The notes beneath the pieces were generated by a model, which made no database searches, was not told the DNA's origin, and was given only the letters and a program-made list of their open reading frames with translations. Shown here piece after piece: positions 34,901-44,026 of a DNA stretch of 44,320 nucleotides. Made by a program: the position numbers and the translations under genes. Source of the stretch: Escherichia phage vB_EcoA_fTuEco01; the sequence record MZ031013.1, one strand, 5' to 3'. Position 1 is the first letter of the stretch; the number at the start of each line of letters is the position of its first letter.

Positions 34901-35269
34901 GACCAAGATGAATATTTGGAAGAGAAGTTATCGCCTAAAGGGTTGGCCTTTGGTGCAATGGGTATGATGAGTACAACTGCTGTATTTAGTCTAGGTGGAG
35001 ATTTCTTAGGTGGCCTAGGTGTTCTACCTTCTGAGTTAGTACAATCCCGTTATGAGGCTGGCTTTCAGACTAAGGGTTTGATAGACCAAATACCACTAGT
35101 AGGTGTTGGTCAAGATGCATATCGTTTAGCAGATTCTATAACTAAATATGCAGAGGGTGATACAGAAGGTGTAGATGTGGCACGTAGGGCTTTACGCTTA
35201 GTGCCTCTAACTAATGTAATAGGAATCCAGAACGCATTGCGTTATGGCTTAGATGAACTGGAGGATTGA
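31961..35269 (+). CDS. Internal virion protein, largest core/ejection protein (T7 gp16-like role), 1102 aa
   Basis: GGAGGA RBS; size and position; no lytic transglycosylase motif recognised in it. Confidence 0.7.
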   Translation: MEQDIKTNWAGYVQSTPEPFSIEAAPVSAPTIRQRNELQEQVLEAKADADILGAVGAAFQNEWLAFGGKRWYDRATADFTPQPDFEIQPEQREALRFKYGTDMMQTITEGVRSEDELNFRIQNADEDLERNKRIAQAGWAGSVATIGAAVLDPVGWVASIPTGGAAKVGLVGRAVRGAIAAGVSNAAIESVLVQGDMTRDLDDIMVALGSGMAMGGVIGAVARGRATKLSEQGDDRAASVVRSADAGDRYVRAVADDSIGAMRVKGEEVLTEGAFDISSKGEDLLKTLQREGNAIDMTPRRWAGTMSALGTVVHSSQDASVRGLGARLFESPQGLGMQKASASLMQNTNLNRLKSADMNRFNDGFDLWLKENNINPVAGHTNSHYVQQYNEKVWEAVRIGMDESTPKSIRMAAEGQQAMYREALALRQRSGEAGFEKVKADDKYMPDIFDSMKARRQFGMHDKEDIIELFSRAYQNGSRKVPKEVADEIARAQVNRVVDATLTGRMSFEKAMSGQTKAEYEAIMRKAGFSDEEIEKMVEALDNKETRDNISNRAKMSLGLDVTQEYNGIRMRDFMNTNVEELTDNYMKEAAGGAALARQGFSTYQAALNAIDLVERNARNAAKDTKAHAQFEAESAKIRQSEPDYKKAQAKIEELKKRLKLKEKDEAAGLAIDEEIRQMREGLRLIMGKSIDADPQALSTKMLRRGRDITGVLRLGQMGFAQLGELANFMGEFGIAATTIALGKQFRFTSKALRSGDGFFRDKNLAEVERMVGYIGEDNWLTTKGARPDEFGDVTTVRGMMAHFDQSMNSIRRAQTNLSLFRMAQGSLERMTNRQIALSFIDHLEGKKIIPQKKLEELGLTQEFMTNLQKHYDANSKGSGLLGFDTMPYAMGETLANAIRRKSGLIIQRNFIGDEGIWMNKALGKTFAQLKSFSLVSGEKQFGRGIRHDKIGLAKKTAYGFALGSIVYAAKAYVNSIGREDQDEYLEEKLSPKGLAFGAMGMMSTTAVFSLGGDFLGGLGVLPSELVQSRYEAGFQTKGLIDQIPLVGVGQDAYRLADSITKYAEGDTEGVDVARRALRLVPLTNVIGIQNALRYGLDELED

Positions 35270-36231
35270 TGAGTTATACTTTCACAGAACATATAGCCAA
35301 CGGTACGCAAGTAACCTATCCCTTTAGATTTGCTGGCAGGGATAAAGGCTATCTTCGTGCCTCAGATGTGATAGTGGAATCTCTTCAAGGTAACACTTGG
35401 ATTGAGGTTACATCTGGCTGGCAATTAACTGGTACGCATCAAATCACTTTTGATGTAGCACCTGTTGCAGGTTTGAAGTTCCGTATTCGAAGGGAAGTAC
35501 AAAAGGAATATCCATACGCTGAGTTTGACCGTGGTGTTACCTTGGATATGAAGTCTTTAAATGGCTCTTTCATTCATATACTGGAGATTACACAGGAGTT
35601 ACTTGATGGGTTTTATCCAGAAGGATACTTCATTAAGCAGAATGTAAGCTGGGGCGGCAATAAGATTACTGACCTAGCTGATGGTGAGAATCCAAAAGAT
35701 GCAGTAAATAAATCACAGCTAGATGCTATCGACAAGAAGCATACTGATTGGAACTCTGCACAAGATATAGAGATTGCTGGTATTAAGAGAGGAATGGTGT
35801 CTGGTGTATCTCATCGCACTATTCCTTGGTATATGGTCGCCTCCGGTGGAGAGCAAATCATTCGACCACCTTACTCATTTGATGATGCTATGGTGTTTAT
35901 AAACGGTGTATTCCAGCATGAACTAGCAGGTGCAGTATCAGTGGGGTATGATGTTATAACCCTGTCCGAGCCATTACAGGCTGGGGATGAAGTTTATGTG
36001 CTTATCGGTAGTCGCTTAACCCCACCTACAAGTGCGGATACTATCCTCTTTACACAAGCAGTGAGTGAAGGTACACAATCTATCGACATTGTAACGGCTT
36101 TCCAACGTCTTGATGTATACTTGGATGGCCTGTATCAACCTAATAATGCTTATGAAATCGTAGGGTCTACTATCACTTTCAGTGAGCCATTACCTGAGTG
36201 TGTCGTAAGTATGAAGCTACAACTAGTGTAA
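35269..36231 (+). CDS. Tail-fiber-like adaptor protein (homologous to the N-terminal tail-attachment domain of T7 gp17), 320 aa
   Basis: TGATG overlap; pattern ...GGNKITDLADGENPKDAVNKSQL resembles T7 gp17 ...RIVNLANAVDDRDAVPFGQL. Too short to be a full fibre, so probably anchors the tailspikes. Confidence 0.65.
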   Translation: MSYTFTEHIANGTQVTYPFRFAGRDKGYLRASDVIVESLQGNTWIEVTSGWQLTGTHQITFDVAPVAGLKFRIRREVQKEYPYAEFDRGVTLDMKSLNGSFIHILEITQELLDGFYPEGYFIKQNVSWGGNKITDLADGENPKDAVNKSQLDAIDKKHTDWNSAQDIEIAGIKRGMVSGVSHRTIPWYMVASGGEQIIRPPYSFDDAMVFINGVFQHELAGAVSVGYDVITLSEPLQAGDEVYVLIGSRLTPPTSADTILFTQAVSEGTQSIDIVTAFQRLDVYLDGLYQPNNAYEIVGSTITFSEPLPECVVSMKLQLV

Positions 36232-40856: not shown

Positions 40857-40929
40857 AGTCTGCTTCAGTAAGCCTGACGCTACAAAATTAGGTCTGTACA
40901 TTCTCTCGCTAGAACGCGGGTATAATTAA
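40732..40929 (+). CDS. Putative o-spanin (Rz1-like lipoprotein), 65 aa, overlapping the i-spanin in the +1 frame
   Basis: Signal peptide MLATTLLIGSLIISGC with lipobox LIISG|C, followed by a Pro-rich mature region (PENPKVKPLKPT). Confidence 0.6.
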   Translation: MLATTLLIGSLIISGCQTALPENPKVKPLKPTLTAVYEVDDKVCFSKPDATKLGLYILSLERGYN

Positions 40930-40968
40930 TACATAGTTTTATGTATCAGTGTCTTACGATTTACTGGA

Positions 40969-40989
40969 CACTATAGAAGAGATAAGATA
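40969..40989 (+). promoter_or_regulatory. Phage RNAP promoter upstream of the tailspike genes
   Basis: ATTTACTGGACACTATAGAAG, perfect consensus. Confidence 0.8.
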
Positions 40990-41060
40990 GTGCCGTTCTT
41001 TTGAGCGGCCTATTACTAGCCAATCTTCATAGGGAGGATTGGGAAGTAATAGGAGAGTAT

Positions 41061-41396
41061 ATGACTAAGTTAACTAAACCCAAGACAACTGGCTTACTAC
41101 ATAGAGATACTGTACTAGCTACATTATTGGATAATTTACTATCTAAAAGGCGTGTTACATTTGAAGGTGTAGTTCCAAGTGAAGATACTAAAATTGAGAT
41201 AGAAGTACCTGCAACAGGAGATTTAGATTCTTCGTGGGCATCACTTGTATCATTAAGTACACCTACACTTTGTACAGCTTGGATTACTAAAGTGTCAGAT
41301 ACTAGATTAGAAGTACATGTGTTCCATACAGCACAAGTTGAAATAGACATAGATGTAGATGTTTACATTCTAGGTAAACACATTGTCAGTGCGTAA
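41061..41396 (+). CDS. 111-aa protein, candidate remnant or N-terminal adaptor-binding module of a second tailspike
   Basis: TAGGAGAG RBS before ATG 41061 (the track starts upstream at 41001). A 111-aa ORF at this position upstream of the endosialidase gene is what I recall for phage K1E, where K1-5 carries a full lyase gene. Confidence 0.5.
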   Translation: MTKLTKPKTTGLLHRDTVLATLLDNLLSKRRVTFEGVVPSEDTKIEIEVPATGDLDSSWASLVSLSTPTLCTAWITKVSDTRLEVHVFHTAQVEIDIDVDVYILGKHIVSA

Positions 41397-41463
41397 GCAC
41401 TGCTTTTCGCGCAACTTTTCTTAAAGGTTATCATGATGGTAGCCTTTCAGAAAAGGAGGTTAC

Positions 41464-43899
41464 ATGATTCAAAGACTAGGTTCTTCATTAGTTAAATTCA
41501 AGAGTAAAATAGCAGGTGCAATCTGGCGTAACTTGGATGACAAGCTCACCGAGGTTGTATCGCTTAAAGATTTTGGAGCCAAAGGTGATGGTAAGACAAA
41601 CGACCAAGATGCAGTAAATGCAGCGATGGCTTCAGGTAAGAGAATTGACGGTGCTGGTGCTACTTACAAAGTATCATCTTTACCTGATATGGAGCGATTC
41701 TATAACACCCGCTTCGTATGGGAACGTTTAGCAGGTCAACCTCTTTACTATGTGAGTAAAGGTTTTATCAATGGTGAACTATATAAAATCACGGATAACC
41801 CTTATTACAATGCTTGGCCTCAAGACAAAGCGTTTGTATATGAGAACGTGATATATGCACCTTACATGGGTAGTGACCGTCATGGTGTTAGTCGTCTGCA
41901 TGTATCATGGGTTAAGTCTGGTGACGATGGTCAAACATGGTCTACTCCAGAGTGGTTAACTGATCTGCATCCAGATTACCCTACAGTGAACTATCATTGT
42001 ATGAGTATGGGTGTATGTCGCAACCGTCTGTTTGCCATGATTGAAACACGTACTTTAGCCAAGAACGCACTAACCAATTGTGCATTGTGGGATCGTCCTA
42101 TGTCTCGTAGTCTGCATCTTACTGGTGGTATCACTAAGGCTGCAAATCAGCGTTATGCAACAATCCATGTACCTGATCACGGATTATTCGTGGGCGATTT
42201 TGTTAACTTCTCTAATTCTGCGGTAACAGGTGTAACTGGTGATATGAAAGTTGCAACAGTTATAGATAAGGACAACTTCACGGTTCTTACAGCCAATCAG
42301 CAGACCTCTGATTTGAACAATGCTGGAAAGAATTGGCACATGGGTACTTCCTTCCATAAGTCTCCATGGCGTAAGACAGATCTTGGCCTGATACCTCGTG
42401 TTACTGAAGTTCATAGCTTTGCTACTATTGATAACAATGGCTTTGTTATGGGTTATCACCAAGGCGACGTAGCTCCACGCGAAGTTGGTCTTTTCTACTT
42501 CCCTGATGCTTTTAACAATCCATCTAATTATGTTCGTCGTCAGATACCCTCTGAGTACGAACCGGATGCGGCAGAGCCATGCATCAAGTACTATGACGGT
42601 GTGTTATACCTTATCACTCGTGGTACTCGTGGTGACAGTCTTGGAAGCTCTTTGCATCGCAGTAGAGATATAGGTCAAACTTGGGAGTCACTAAGATTTC
42701 CACATAATGTGCATCATACTACTTTACCGTTTGCTAAGGTAGGAGATGATCTTATTATGTTTGGTTCAGAACGTGCAGAAAATGAATGGGAAGCAGGTGC
42801 ACCTGATGATCGTTACAAGGCATCTTACCCCCGCACCTTCTATGCACGATTGAATGTAAACAAGTGGAGTGCAGATGACATTGAATGGGTTAACATCACA
42901 GACCAAATCTATCAGGGTGACATTGTTAACTCCAGTGTAGGTGTAGGTTCGGTGGTAGTTAAAGACAGTTACATTTACTATATCTTTGGTGGTGAAAACC
43001 ATTTCAACCCAATGACTTATGGTGACAACAAAGATAAAGACCCATTTATTGGACATGGACACCCTACTGATATATACTGCTATAAGATGCAGATTGCAAA
43101 TGACAGTCGTGTATCTCGTAAGTTTACATATGGTGCAACTCCAGGTCAGGCTATACCTACCTTCATGGGTACTGATGGTATTCGTACTATCCCTGCTCCA
43201 CTTCACTTATCAGGAGAGGTAGTTGCCGCAGATATGACTGTCGAACATCTTACCCTGAAGGCAAGTACAAGTGCTAATATTCGCTCAGAGATGCTGATGG
43301 AAGGTGAATATGGGTTCATTGGTAAGACTATACCAACGGATAACCCAACCGCACAACGTGTTATCATCTCGGGTGGAGAAGGTACAGCAGCAGATAAAGG
43401 TGCTCAGATTACCCTACATGGAGCAGGTTCTAGTACTTCTAGACGCGCAGTGTATAATGCCAATGAGCACTTGTTCCAAAGTGGGGCTATCATGCCATAC
43501 AACGATAACCTGTACCCTGCTGGCGGTCCTCATAATAGATTCACCACTATCCATCTTACAAGTGACCCTATTATTACATCGGATGCCACTCATAAGTATG
43601 GCTCACAAGGTATTGATGAGAGTGTACTAAAGGCATGGGGTAAGGTTGCCTTCAAGCAGTACAAGTTGATTGGCGAGATGTCTCGTGGTGTGCATCACAC
43701 TCACTTTGGTGTATTGGCACAAGACATTGTAGCTGCTTTTGCATCCGAAGGGTTAGATGCAATCGACTTCGGCATTGTCTCCTTCGAAGAAGGTCAGTTT
43801 GGTGTTAGATATAGTGAAATCTTAATCTTGGAGGCTGCTTATACTCGCTATCGTTTAGACAAGTTAGAGGAGATGTATGCCACTAATAAAAGCAGTTAA
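41464..43899 (+). CDS. Tailspike endo-N-acetylneuraminidase (endosialidase) with C-terminal intramolecular chaperone domain, 811 aa
   Basis: Two sialidase Asp-box motifs (SGDDGQTW and SRDIGQTW), a C-terminal region typical of self-cleaving tailspike chaperone domains, AAAGGAGG RBS, and a length of 811 aa that matches K1E/K1-5 endosialidases as I recall them. Confidence 0.8.
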   Translation: MIQRLGSSLVKFKSKIAGAIWRNLDDKLTEVVSLKDFGAKGDGKTNDQDAVNAAMASGKRIDGAGATYKVSSLPDMERFYNTRFVWERLAGQPLYYVSKGFINGELYKITDNPYYNAWPQDKAFVYENVIYAPYMGSDRHGVSRLHVSWVKSGDDGQTWSTPEWLTDLHPDYPTVNYHCMSMGVCRNRLFAMIETRTLAKNALTNCALWDRPMSRSLHLTGGITKAANQRYATIHVPDHGLFVGDFVNFSNSAVTGVTGDMKVATVIDKDNFTVLTANQQTSDLNNAGKNWHMGTSFHKSPWRKTDLGLIPRVTEVHSFATIDNNGFVMGYHQGDVAPREVGLFYFPDAFNNPSNYVRRQIPSEYEPDAAEPCIKYYDGVLYLITRGTRGDSLGSSLHRSRDIGQTWESLRFPHNVHHTTLPFAKVGDDLIMFGSERAENEWEAGAPDDRYKASYPRTFYARLNVNKWSADDIEWVNITDQIYQGDIVNSSVGVGSVVVKDSYIYYIFGGENHFNPMTYGDNKDKDPFIGHGHPTDIYCYKMQIANDSRVSRKFTYGATPGQAIPTFMGTDGIRTIPAPLHLSGEVVAADMTVEHLTLKASTSANIRSEMLMEGEYGFIGKTIPTDNPTAQRVIISGGEGTAADKGAQITLHGAGSSTSRRAVYNANEHLFQSGAIMPYNDNLYPAGGPHNRFTTIHLTSDPIITSDATHKYGSQGIDESVLKAWGKVAFKQYKLIGEMSRGVHHTHFGVLAQDIVAAFASEGLDAIDFGIVSFEEGQFGVRYSEILILEAAYTRYRLDKLEEMYATNKSS

Positions 43900-44026
43900 G
43901 CAAGCGGCTGTACGCCAGAACACAGAAGAACTTATTCAATCAGGACGTGACCATAAGCAGGCTTATGCCATTGCTAAGGATGTACAACGTCGTGCCATGA
44001 AGAAACCTTCTGCATCTTCTGCGTAA
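43877..44026 (+). CDS. Hypothetical small basic protein, 49 aa (T7 gene 19.5-like position)
   Basis: AGGAG RBS inside the 3' end of the tailspike gene; ATG at 43877 in the +1 frame; the last gene before the right-end repeats. Confidence 0.3.
   Translation: MPLIKAVKQAAVRQNTEELIQSGRDHKQAYAIAKDVQRRAMKKPSASSA

Follow-up and report, generated by a model that had tools for sequence, protein, structure and literature searches.

Tailspike locus of a K1E-like Vectrevirus: a small slot-1 stub upstream of the endosialidase in a probably exchangeable cassette

Organization of the locus

The window, meaning the whole stretch of 44,320 nucleotides analysed here (Escherichia phage vB_EcoA_fTuEco01, MZ031013.1), comes from a K1E-like Vectrevirus. 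Its DNA is 90-99% identical to that of K1E-like phages, whose records annotate gp46 and gp47 in the matching segment, and the locus is the already known tailspike locus of K1E-like coliphage, whose arrangement has been on record since the 1990s. The features given below are on the plus strand. An SP6/K1E-type phage RNA polymerase promoter (40959..40981, ATTTACTGGACACTATAGAAGAG) matches the window's own promoter consensus perfectly and would start transcription at approximately 40976. Scanning the window for this promoter gave eight matches against zero expected by chance, two of them perfect copies, this one included. The promoter is identical in K1E, K1-5 and Mt1B1_P10 and is annotated as such in X78310 and Y10025. 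A 5' leader stem-loop, GCCGTTC-TTTT-GAGCGGC (40992..41009), was read directly from the sequence; it falls in a block that is near-identical among K1E, K1-5 and Mt1B1_P10, and any function that it may have is conjectural.

The first gene of the locus is the gene 46 homologue (41061..41396), which encodes a stub of 111 amino acids (aa) corresponding to K1E gp46, to the '12 kDa ORF' of GenBank X78310 and to phrog_15083. It starts with an ATG at 41061 behind AGGAG (41051-41055) and has 111 codons plus a TAA stop (41394-41396). The list of open reading frames places the start at a TTG at 41001, but all annotated relatives begin at the ATG. A spacer of 67 nt (41397-41463) separates it from the gene 47 homologue (41464..43899), the endosialidase tailspike of 811 aa. 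The promoter scan of the window found no phage promoter between the two genes, and therefore they are co-transcribed. The preliminary description had proposed a promoter at 40969 driving a 111-aa ORF and then an 811-aa endosialidase; position 40969 lies inside the perfect promoter copy, and every element of that order was found at or beside the place proposed.

The gene 47 product matches five Pfam families, End_N_terminal, End_beta_propel (E 1.5e-221), End_beta_barrel, End_tail_spike and Peptidase_S74 (PF12218, PF12217, PF12195, PF12219 and PF13884, all above cut-offs), and follows the endosialidase plan of an N-terminal extension, a beta-propeller with inserted beta-barrel, a stalk and a C-terminal chaperone domain. 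Against the PDB it matches the endoNF-type structures 3gvl and 1v0e with E = 0. The undecapeptide MIQRLGSSLVK, specified by codons 1-11 (41464-41496), is common to the slot-2 proteins of K1-5, CrRp3, P433.1, LL11, VEc3 and K5; the slot-2 proteins of the family share M-I/L-Q-R/K-L. The adaptor gene, a gp37 homologue (35269..36231), has the Pfam PF03906 Phage_T7_tail N-terminal domain and matches the 'tail adaptor protein' 7y22_e over its full length (E 1e-83). This adaptor would carry both docking sites.

The gene 46 product: a docking region joined to an orphan part

The 111-aa protein is 96% identical to K1E gp46 and matches phrog_15083 from position 1 to 111 of 111 (E 7e-73). Gene 46 follows the late promoter and precedes the endosialidase gene, an arrangement collinear with K1E, ACG-C91, KAW1A4500, ULINTec4 and ULINTec6, and its family, with 26 phage records and three protein clusters, is confined to K1E-like phages. 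Among 5.8 billion proteins, a word-indexed search returned this 111-aa family alone; a HMMER profile search run in full over 1.84 billion representative proteins yielded no longer parent spike, and neither tblastn nor blastn, run on 50,697 phage records, found protein or DNA relatives outside K1E-like phages. No Pfam domain was found in the stub, and Pfam, PDB, fold and spike-body homology searches gave no receptor-binding or depolymerase body (beta-helix or similar). An antisense ORF of 107 aa (41027-41350) was dismissed, its open frame being only 85-101 codons in relatives.

Codons 1-45 (41061..41195) encode the docking heptapeptide MTKLTKP and a region resembling the N-terminus of the K5 lyase. 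In BLASTP, residues 1-46 align to residues 1-46 of the K5 lyase with 17 of 46 identical (37%, E 3e-6), and the 479-aa slot-1 spike of Mt1B1_P10 is matched by residues 1-27 of the stub (E 5e-5). Smith-Waterman comparison of residues 1-45 with shuffled sequences gave z-scores of 12.2 for the K5 lyase and 11.2 for the Mt1B1_P10 spike, and the sole PDB sequence match of the stub is the N-terminus of the K5 lyase structure 2x3h. The heptapeptide is one substitution away from MAKLTKP and aligns with its counterparts in K1-5, K5, LL11, VEc3 and Mt1B1_P10; the slot-1 proteins of the family share M-A-K/G-L-T-K/R-P/V/A, the SP6 version being MSLTKP. According to reviews citing Leiman 2007 (PMC6872550, PMC6966330, PMC5380687), MAKLTKP docks the slot-1 spike on the adaptor gp37, which links gp46 and gp47 in K1E, the undecapeptide is the corresponding slot-2 docking element, and K1E gp46 is a truncated spike of very small size that gp37 holds in place. 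Reviews citing Leiman 2007 also report trimeric gp46 on the adaptor of the K1E virion by cryo-EM. The physical docking of gp46 to gp37 is thus taken here from the literature. The earlier suggestion that the short ORF is an adaptor-docking N-terminal module, to be checked by alignment to the K1-5 lyase, agrees with this match, with the refinement that only about 45 residues look spike-derived.

The remainder, codons 46-111 (41196..41393), encodes a predicted beta-rich C-terminal part that is an orphan by sequence and cannot be recognised as a piece of a spike. It has no homologue in 1.84 billion representative proteins, its codons have no DNA match outside K1E-like phages, and it shows no similarity to the K5 lyase (z -1.8). 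The AF2 model of the stub is poor (pLDDT 49.8, five strands), and Foldseek against the PDB returned nothing with E below 0.9, only generic Ig-like sandwiches; no conclusion is based on the model. Weak Smith-Waterman similarities between residues 46-111 and rungs of the beta-helix in the spikes of P433.1 (z 3.5) and CrRp3 (z 2.8) were dismissed, as they look compositional between beta-rich sequences.

These results bear on the origin of the gene. PMC5380687 attributes to Clarke et al. 2000 the proposal that K1E arose from a K5-type phage by endosialidase gain and truncation of the lyase gene kflA. Gene 46 and the K5 lyase gene do occupy the same slot, and the similarity of their first 46 residues fits such a descent. 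Nevertheless, that gene 46 is literally a truncated kflA seems to us very unlikely: the shared part is just 37% identical while the flanking non-coding DNA exceeds 95%, residues 46-111 resemble no part of the lyase, and the DNA from 41125 to 41393 has no match in K1-5 or K5 in any frame. Besides, the N-terminus of the unrelated Mt1B1_P10 spike is similar about equally well, and gene 46 has a G+C content of 35% and a GC3 of 17%, whereas the genome stands at 45%; such a composition suggests that the donor was another one, rich in A+T.

Could gene 46 instead be a functionless remnant that drifts to loss, its ORF persisting since deletion of the spike body is recent? The orphan C-terminal sequence would suit this reading, and the ORF enters the conserved junction and ends with the TAA that the hairpin 1 loop holds, which is what a deletion fusing a gene to the junction should leave. 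Frameshifts are also found: the deposited genome of phage mutPK1A2 has a 1-nt deletion in gene 46 that leaves a product of only 46 aa, and a frameshift is present in the K1A entry EF507428 too. On the other hand, all informative pairs, those with the 83%-identical copy of ACG-C91 (dS 0.28-0.38) among them, give a dN/dS of 0.15-0.44, and this purifying selection indicates that the gene is not simply decaying. The six intact copies compared have exactly 111 codons each, with no stops or indels at approximately 17% protein divergence, 24 of the 26 phage records give a single unbroken tblastn match across residues 14-111, and the antisense and other frames across the gene are not kept open. We consider drift to loss improbable, and retention under selection the better account. 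Because of the mutPK1A2 frameshift, the C-terminal part of the stub appears dispensable for propagation. Slot 1 was always occupied in the endosialidase-bearing Vectrevirus records examined, by the stub, the K5 lyase or the 479-aa spike, and was empty in none. In Pectobacterium phage PP1, the promoter and both hairpins accompany just one fibre gene, and no slot-1 gene is present; therefore an occupied slot is not universally needed in the subfamily.

Conserved junctions and RNA hairpins

Two hairpins lie at the boundary between the genes. Hairpin 1 (41385..41404) has the stem CAGTGC/GCACTG and the loop GTAA, which holds the stop codon of gene 46, and is followed by a TTTTC tract. It is kept with compensatory changes in SP6, CrRp3, P433.1, PM93 and PP1; four pairs are changed on both sides, and the observed score was reached in none of 500 shuffles. 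The covarying stem has 6-8 bp, then UUUUC, and was not picked up by a simple terminator scan, but the annotations of KAW1A4500 and LL11 list hairpin 1 as a terminator. With no separate promoter for gene 47, hairpin 1 must allow read-through and is excluded as an efficient terminator. Hairpin 2 (41415..41455) consists of an inner stem of 11 bp (41423-41433/41437-41447) and an outer stem of 7 bp, and abuts the Shine-Dalgarno sequence. Across 11 phages, 99% of its cells are paired, with U.G pairs on the plus strand only and one-sided changes from U.G to C-G or U-A. The RNA fold of 41378-41470 has -29.9 kcal/mol (z -4.08). When 40900-41520 was scanned against Rfam, nothing rose above the noise below threshold, and neither hairpin matched a family.

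Regardless of the cassette carried, 117 phage records share the left junction, and 107, from the SP6 family, share the right one. Identity between cassettes stops just past the docking codons and returns inside hairpin 1. The conserved right block begins at 41387 (at 41384 when only K1E-like phages are compared) and extends to approximately 41500; it takes in the final codons of gene 46 and roughly the first 12 of the endosialidase. The idea that the spacer acts as a recombination junction, for which comparison of flanking sequences across SP6-family genomes had been suggested, is borne out in that the spacer lies at the cassette boundary in relatives and the right junction is conserved among records with different cassettes; the block is nevertheless wider than the spacer and holds the two RNA hairpins. 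Among K1E-like phages, all four combinations of gene 46 and gene 47 alleles occur, and crossovers within the K1E clade map somewhere between 41384 and approximately 43000, not specifically to the spacer. Phage alia also has a copy of the junction; the 49-aa gene that follows it there proved not to be homologous to the 49-aa ORF downstream of the endosialidase.

As the block holds two RNA hairpins, its conservation probably comes from an RNA-level function, in which case recombination there would be a consequence and not a purpose. We lean towards the reading that 41384-41500 is kept for a role in the RNA, whether in its processing or stability, in partial termination or in controlling translation of the slot-2 gene, not as a dedicated recombination site, and are equally inclined to think that cassette boundaries fall there only as the nearest shared homology. 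The compensatory changes in hairpin 1, the strand-specific G.U pairs of hairpin 2, the fold z-score and the contact of the outer stem with the Shine-Dalgarno sequence argue for it, as do the terminator annotation by two groups and the occurrence of the block in PP1, which has a single fibre gene, led by this block, and no cassette to exchange. The lack of an Rfam family and the need for read-through at hairpin 1 weigh on the other side. An RNA function complements the exchange of cassettes proposed below and does not exclude it. A more ambitious combination, in which residues 46-111 are a selected domain (for instance a slot cap orienting the endosialidase, or a stabiliser of the adaptor trimer) and the hairpins are an uncatalogued slot-2 expression element of the SP6 family, is put forward tentatively, as we find it rather doubtful.

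Proposed explanation and comparison with known systems

Taken as a whole, the locus is, with good confidence, the tailspike operon of a K1E-like Vectrevirus with a docked stub, an endosialidase and an exchangeable slot-1 cassette. One phage promoter (40959-40981) would give a bicistronic late transcript. MTKLTKP and approximately 35 further residues would dock the stub into the slot-1 site of the trimeric adaptor gp37, and the rest of the stub may form a small beta-rich orphan domain without depolymerase. The stub would fill the site that is held by the K5 lyase in K1-5, leaving a phage presumably specific for K1, and filling of the site may be what selection acts on. The endosialidase would dock to the second adaptor site through MIQRLGSSLVK. 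On the left, the slot-1 cassette would be bounded by the promoter, leader and docking-peptide codons, and on the right by the conserved leader of the slot-2 gene with its two RNA hairpins; these flanking blocks would supply the homology at which slot-1 cassettes were exchanged within the SP6 family.

In broader terms, the locus is textbook modular host-range evolution: one adaptor, two docking sites, N-terminal peptide plugs and exchangeable cassettes. These properties make the locus useful when therapeutic phages are to be designed against capsulated E. coli. For the window itself, the locus only confirms a single-specificity (K1) member of the K1E group. The three ideas of the preliminary description, the K5 lyase slot, the docking module and the junction, are supported with refinements, and all were already published. 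What is added here are small points: the purifying selection on the stub, the lack of recognisable K5 lyase derivation past approximately 45 residues, a stub composition foreign to the genome, a stop codon in a covarying hairpin loop, and two RNA structures outside Rfam.

The closest known system is K1E gp46 (CAJ29457), which likewise has 111 aa, the same promoter, a position upstream of the endosialidase and a stop inside hairpin 1. The stub of the window differs by four substitutions, including A2T (MTKLTKP here, MAKLTKP in K1E); ACG-C91 gp46 has G at position 2 of the heptapeptide, so this position is variable. In K1-5 and K5, gp46 is the K5 lyase KflA (632 aa, PDB 2X3H), found in the K1-5 slot as the preliminary description had stated. 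It shares the slot, promoter, leader and downstream junction, and its N-terminal 45 or so residues with the docking heptapeptide are related. In contrast to the stub, which has 66 unrelated residues and no enzymatic domain detected, it comprises a complete lyase body of the beta-helix type, followed by a C-terminal region. The dual tailspike system of SP6 (tailspike, tail fibre and adaptor gp37) has the same two-slot architecture, hairpins and docking-peptide logic, with 78-80% identity in the left junction and 88% in the right, but carries full receptor-binding proteins in both slots, aimed at Salmonella O-antigens, with MSLTKP as slot-1 peptide. Lastly, in Klebsiella KP34-like phages a truncated first receptor-binding protein retains the attachment function only (Latka et al. 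2019, PMC6872550). It is likewise a shortened protein in a receptor-binding position, but has no sequence relation to the stub, and while it anchors a second protein, the stub of the window would be a passenger on a separate adaptor.

Layout of the tailspike locus and identity of the 111-codon ORF

The locus opens with the phage promoter ATTTACTGGACACTATAGAAGAG (40959-40981, + strand), which fits the genome's own consensus for phage promoters perfectly; the window has eight copies, each on the + strand, where chance predicts none. The homologous site is an annotated promoter in GenBank X78310 and Y10025. Downstream are a short leader stem-loop (40992-41009), the ribosome-binding site AGGAG (41051-41055), a 111-codon ORF (gene 46, 41061-41396), a spacer of 67 nt (41397-41463) and the 811-aa ORF of the endosialidase (gene 47, 41464-43899), so that every element of the promoter, short ORF and endosialidase arrangement proposed in the preliminary description is present. 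Because the promoter scan of the window found no match between genes 46 and 47, the two form one transcription unit. The 811-aa protein has all the Pfam endosialidase domains (End_N_terminal, beta-propeller, beta-barrel, tail-spike stalk and Peptidase_S74 chaperone) and matches solved endosialidase structures with E = 0. A 49-aa ORF (43877-44026, + strand) shares its first 23 nt with the end of the endosialidase gene. It is a member of phrog_2423 (E 1e-22), a family of unknown function, and K1-5 and other relatives list it as gene 48.

In DNA comparison, the 3-kb region matches K1E-like Vectrevirus phages end to end, with identities of 98.8% to vB_EcoM_SHAK7704, 98.5% to KAW1A4500, 96% to K1A and mutPK1A2, and 90.3% to K1E. 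In the closest database relative, vB_EcoM_SHAK7704 (OR594181.1, 4187-7237), the tailspike region is annotated 'similar to RNA polymerase / DNA primase-helicase', apparently an automatic annotation that slipped out of register. With gp46 of K1E, whose genome (AM084415) annotates the small ORF as gene 46, the 111-aa protein shares 96% identity; it is the "12 kDa ORF" of GenBank X78310. Its family, phrog_15083 (function unknown), forms three 90%-identity clusters among 5.8 billion proteins, all of 111 aa; an exhaustive HMMER search of 1.84 billion representatives with the family profile found its own cluster only. In the phage collection, tblastn identified 26 K1E-like records, and blastn with gene 46 DNA found no similarity outside the K1E group.

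Docking, origin and selection of gp46

The slot of gene 46 (slot 1, the first of two spike positions whose products dock on the adaptor gp37) holds a 632-aa K5 lyase in K1-5, K5, LL11, VEc3 and AAPEc6, as the preliminary description stated for K1-5. Elsewhere it is occupied by a 479-aa spike (Mt1B1_P10 and T145P2), a 550-aa spike (SP6), a 578-aa protein (CrRp3) or a 684-aa spike (P433.1). The first 46 residues of gp46 align with the first 46 of K5 lyase (17/46 identical, E 3e-6), and its residues 1-27 with the beginning of the Mt1B1_P10 spike. Smith-Waterman scores of residues 1-45, compared with 200 shuffles, give a z of 12.2 for K5 lyase and 11.2 for the Mt1B1_P10 spike. The sole PDB sequence match of the family profile is the K5 lyase N-terminus, 2X3H. 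The slot-1 proteins begin MAKLTKP in K1-5, K5 and K1E, MAKITKP in Mt1B1_P10, MSLTKP in SP6, MAGLTKV in CrRp3 and MAGLTRA in P433.1, and the window's begins MTKLTKP. Slot-2 proteins begin M-I/L-Q-R/K-L-G/S, the window's endosialidase with MIQRLGSSLVK; the slot-2 N-terminal region is shared with a 668-aa "phage tail fiber" (PDB 7y5s), which we infer from chain length to be Klebsiella phage Kp7 gp51.

According to reviews citing Leiman 2007 (PMC6872550, PMC6966330, PMC5380687), the heptapeptide docks the slot-1 spike at the middle of gp37 and an undecapeptide docks the endosialidase on its C-terminal part; in K1E cryo-EM, gp37 connects gp46 and gp47, and gp46, called "very small and truncated", lacks enzymatic activity. 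The window carries the adaptor gene at 35269-36231; Pfam assigns its product a Phage_T7_tail N-terminal domain, and in the PDB it matches the "tail adaptor protein" 7y22 (E 1e-83). The suggestion that the 111-aa ORF is an adaptor-docking N-terminal module is thus borne out by the N-terminal matches, the heptapeptide and the presence of the adaptor gene.

Clarke et al. 2000, as quoted in PMC5380687, proposed that K1E arose by truncation of the K5 lyase gene kflA. On sequence comparison, this origin would apply at most to the first ~45 residues of gp46, and even these have only 37% protein identity to K5 lyase, whereas the neighbouring non-coding DNA is >95% identical. Residues 46-111 have no similarity to K5 lyase (z -1.8) and, against the other slot-1 spikes, nothing beyond compositional noise. 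The composition of gene 46 is foreign (GC 35%, GC3 17%, versus 45% for the genome; endosialidase GC3 is 35%). The gene runs into the conserved junction: its final two codons (S, A) and stop are encoded by hairpin 1 (41385-41404), with the TAA in the loop, as expected if a foreign 5' gene fragment was fused to the junction. We infer that the stub arose by such a fusion, through deletion or illegitimate recombination. AlphaFold2 modelled gp46 with low confidence (pLDDT 49.8), placing a helix at 15-24 and five strands, and Foldseek with this model found nothing.

The dN/dS of gene 46 is 0.15-0.44 (Nei-Gojobori, pairs among six intact copies, including ACG-C91 with 83% protein identity and dS 0.28-0.38), and that of the endosialidase 0.06-0.15 (Nei-Gojobori). 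All six intact copies have exactly 111 codons. In relatives, an antisense 107-aa ORF (41027-41350, - strand) keeps just 85-101 codons free of stops; it is most likely spurious. The dN/dS values, constant length and unpreserved antisense frame indicate purifying selection on the protein, and slot 1 is filled (stub, K5 lyase or 479-aa spike) in every endosialidase-bearing Vectrevirus record examined. Other observations speak against this. In mutPK1A2 (L008, MG004687; 161-301), a 1-nt deletion, annotated by the depositors as premature termination, leaves a 46-aa product that still includes the docking region. The older entry of K1A (L009, EF507428; ~163-500) has a frameshift as well, at an A-run close by, and this one could be a sequencing error. 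Pectobacterium phage PP1 (L019, 2400-2580), a relative with a single fibre, lacks a slot-1 gene and has the promoter, both junction hairpins and then its fibre gene (MVQRLGSS...). The selected function of gp46 is probably that its N-terminal part occupies the adaptor site, with the C-terminal domain perhaps adding something weaker.

Junctions, hairpins and cassette exchange

At the left junction, the window, K1E, K1-5 and Mt1B1_P10 are nearly identical over a stretch that starts upstream of the promoter and reaches the ribosome-binding site, and identity fades within the first ~50 nt of coding sequence; 117 phage records match 40930-41100, among them SP6 (78%) and phages of Proteus and Klebsiella. 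At the right junction, identity restarts at CAGTGCGTAAGCACTG (from 41387) and extends through the first ~12 codons of the slot-2 gene, and 41380-41500 matches 107 records, among them phages of Salmonella, Proteus, Pectobacterium, Lelliottia, Citrobacter and Klebsiella.

The right junction contains hairpin 1 and hairpin 2 (41415-41455), whose conservation was scored on an 11-phage alignment. Hairpin 1 has an 8-bp stem and a four-base, mostly GNRA-like loop; four pairs change on both sides (12 cells), a covariation reached in 0/500 shuffles, and 94% of cells are paired versus 29-49% with the partners slid. The 11-bp inner stem of hairpin 2 is nearly invariant (99% paired), and its U.G pairs, possible in + strand RNA only, are replaced by C-G or U-A in some cases. 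The window's hairpin 2 has an extra 7-bp outer stem (41415-41421 / 41449-41455) that reaches the first G of the Shine-Dalgarno, and the fold of 41378-41470 has an energy of -29.9 kcal/mol (z -4.08). No Rfam family matched the region of either hairpin. Two annotators called hairpin 1 a terminator; an efficient one is unlikely, as gene 47 has no promoter of its own and PP1 has hairpin 1 in the leader of its sole fibre gene. Since PP1 keeps both hairpins without a slot-1 gene, they belong to the slot-2 gene leader, with slot-1 cassettes sitting upstream. We conclude from these comparisons that what keeps the block conserved is probably a function in the RNA, be it stability, processing, attenuation or control of translation; as the nearest shared homology, it also marks the cassette exchange point.

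The spacer had been proposed as a recombination junction. A conserved block does lie at the cassette boundary, but recombination in the K1E group is not localised to the spacer, which is itself invariant: apart from pairs that involve ACG-C91, every pair has 0/80 differences. Two main allele types of the gene 46 body occur in this group. For the 3' third of the endosialidase gene (43001-43950), which encodes the stalk and the C-terminal chaperone, K1E-like phages have two alleles ~24% apart (114-129/500 nt), and the 5' part differs by <2% among those compared, ACG-C91 excepted; the gene is itself mosaic, with transitions near 42000 and 43000. All four combinations of gene 46 body and 3' alleles occur (window, KAW1A4500, K1E and ULINTec4), which proves recombination between these two loci without pinpointing the spacer.

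A copy of both hairpins is also found in phage alia (L017, MN850632; 2995-3080), a 147-kb Justusliebigvirus of the subfamily Stephanstirmvirinae, which has no relation to the SP6 family, with 85% identity over 74 nt to window 41387-41460. It lies directly 3' of the tailspike gene alia_23, with no slot-2 gene after it, and the spike body is ~47% identical to fibres of the 40-kb phages Sarma103 and P151. This suggests joint transfer of a spike cassette and its junction.

Comparison with earlier descriptions

Scholl et al. in 2001 reportedly described both the 111-aa ORF in the lyase's place and the conserved region between the genes, with its dyad symmetries. Three reviews (PMC6872550, PMC6966330, PMC5380687) credit Leiman 2007 with the view that gp46 is a second spike, truncated and bound to the adaptor. 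The docking-module interpretation is right and already accepted in the field; the locus finding is real and already known. To this the present analysis makes modest additions: gene 46 is under selection and appears to come from an AT-rich source other than the lyase, its stop codon falls within a hairpin loop, and the junction shows covariation.
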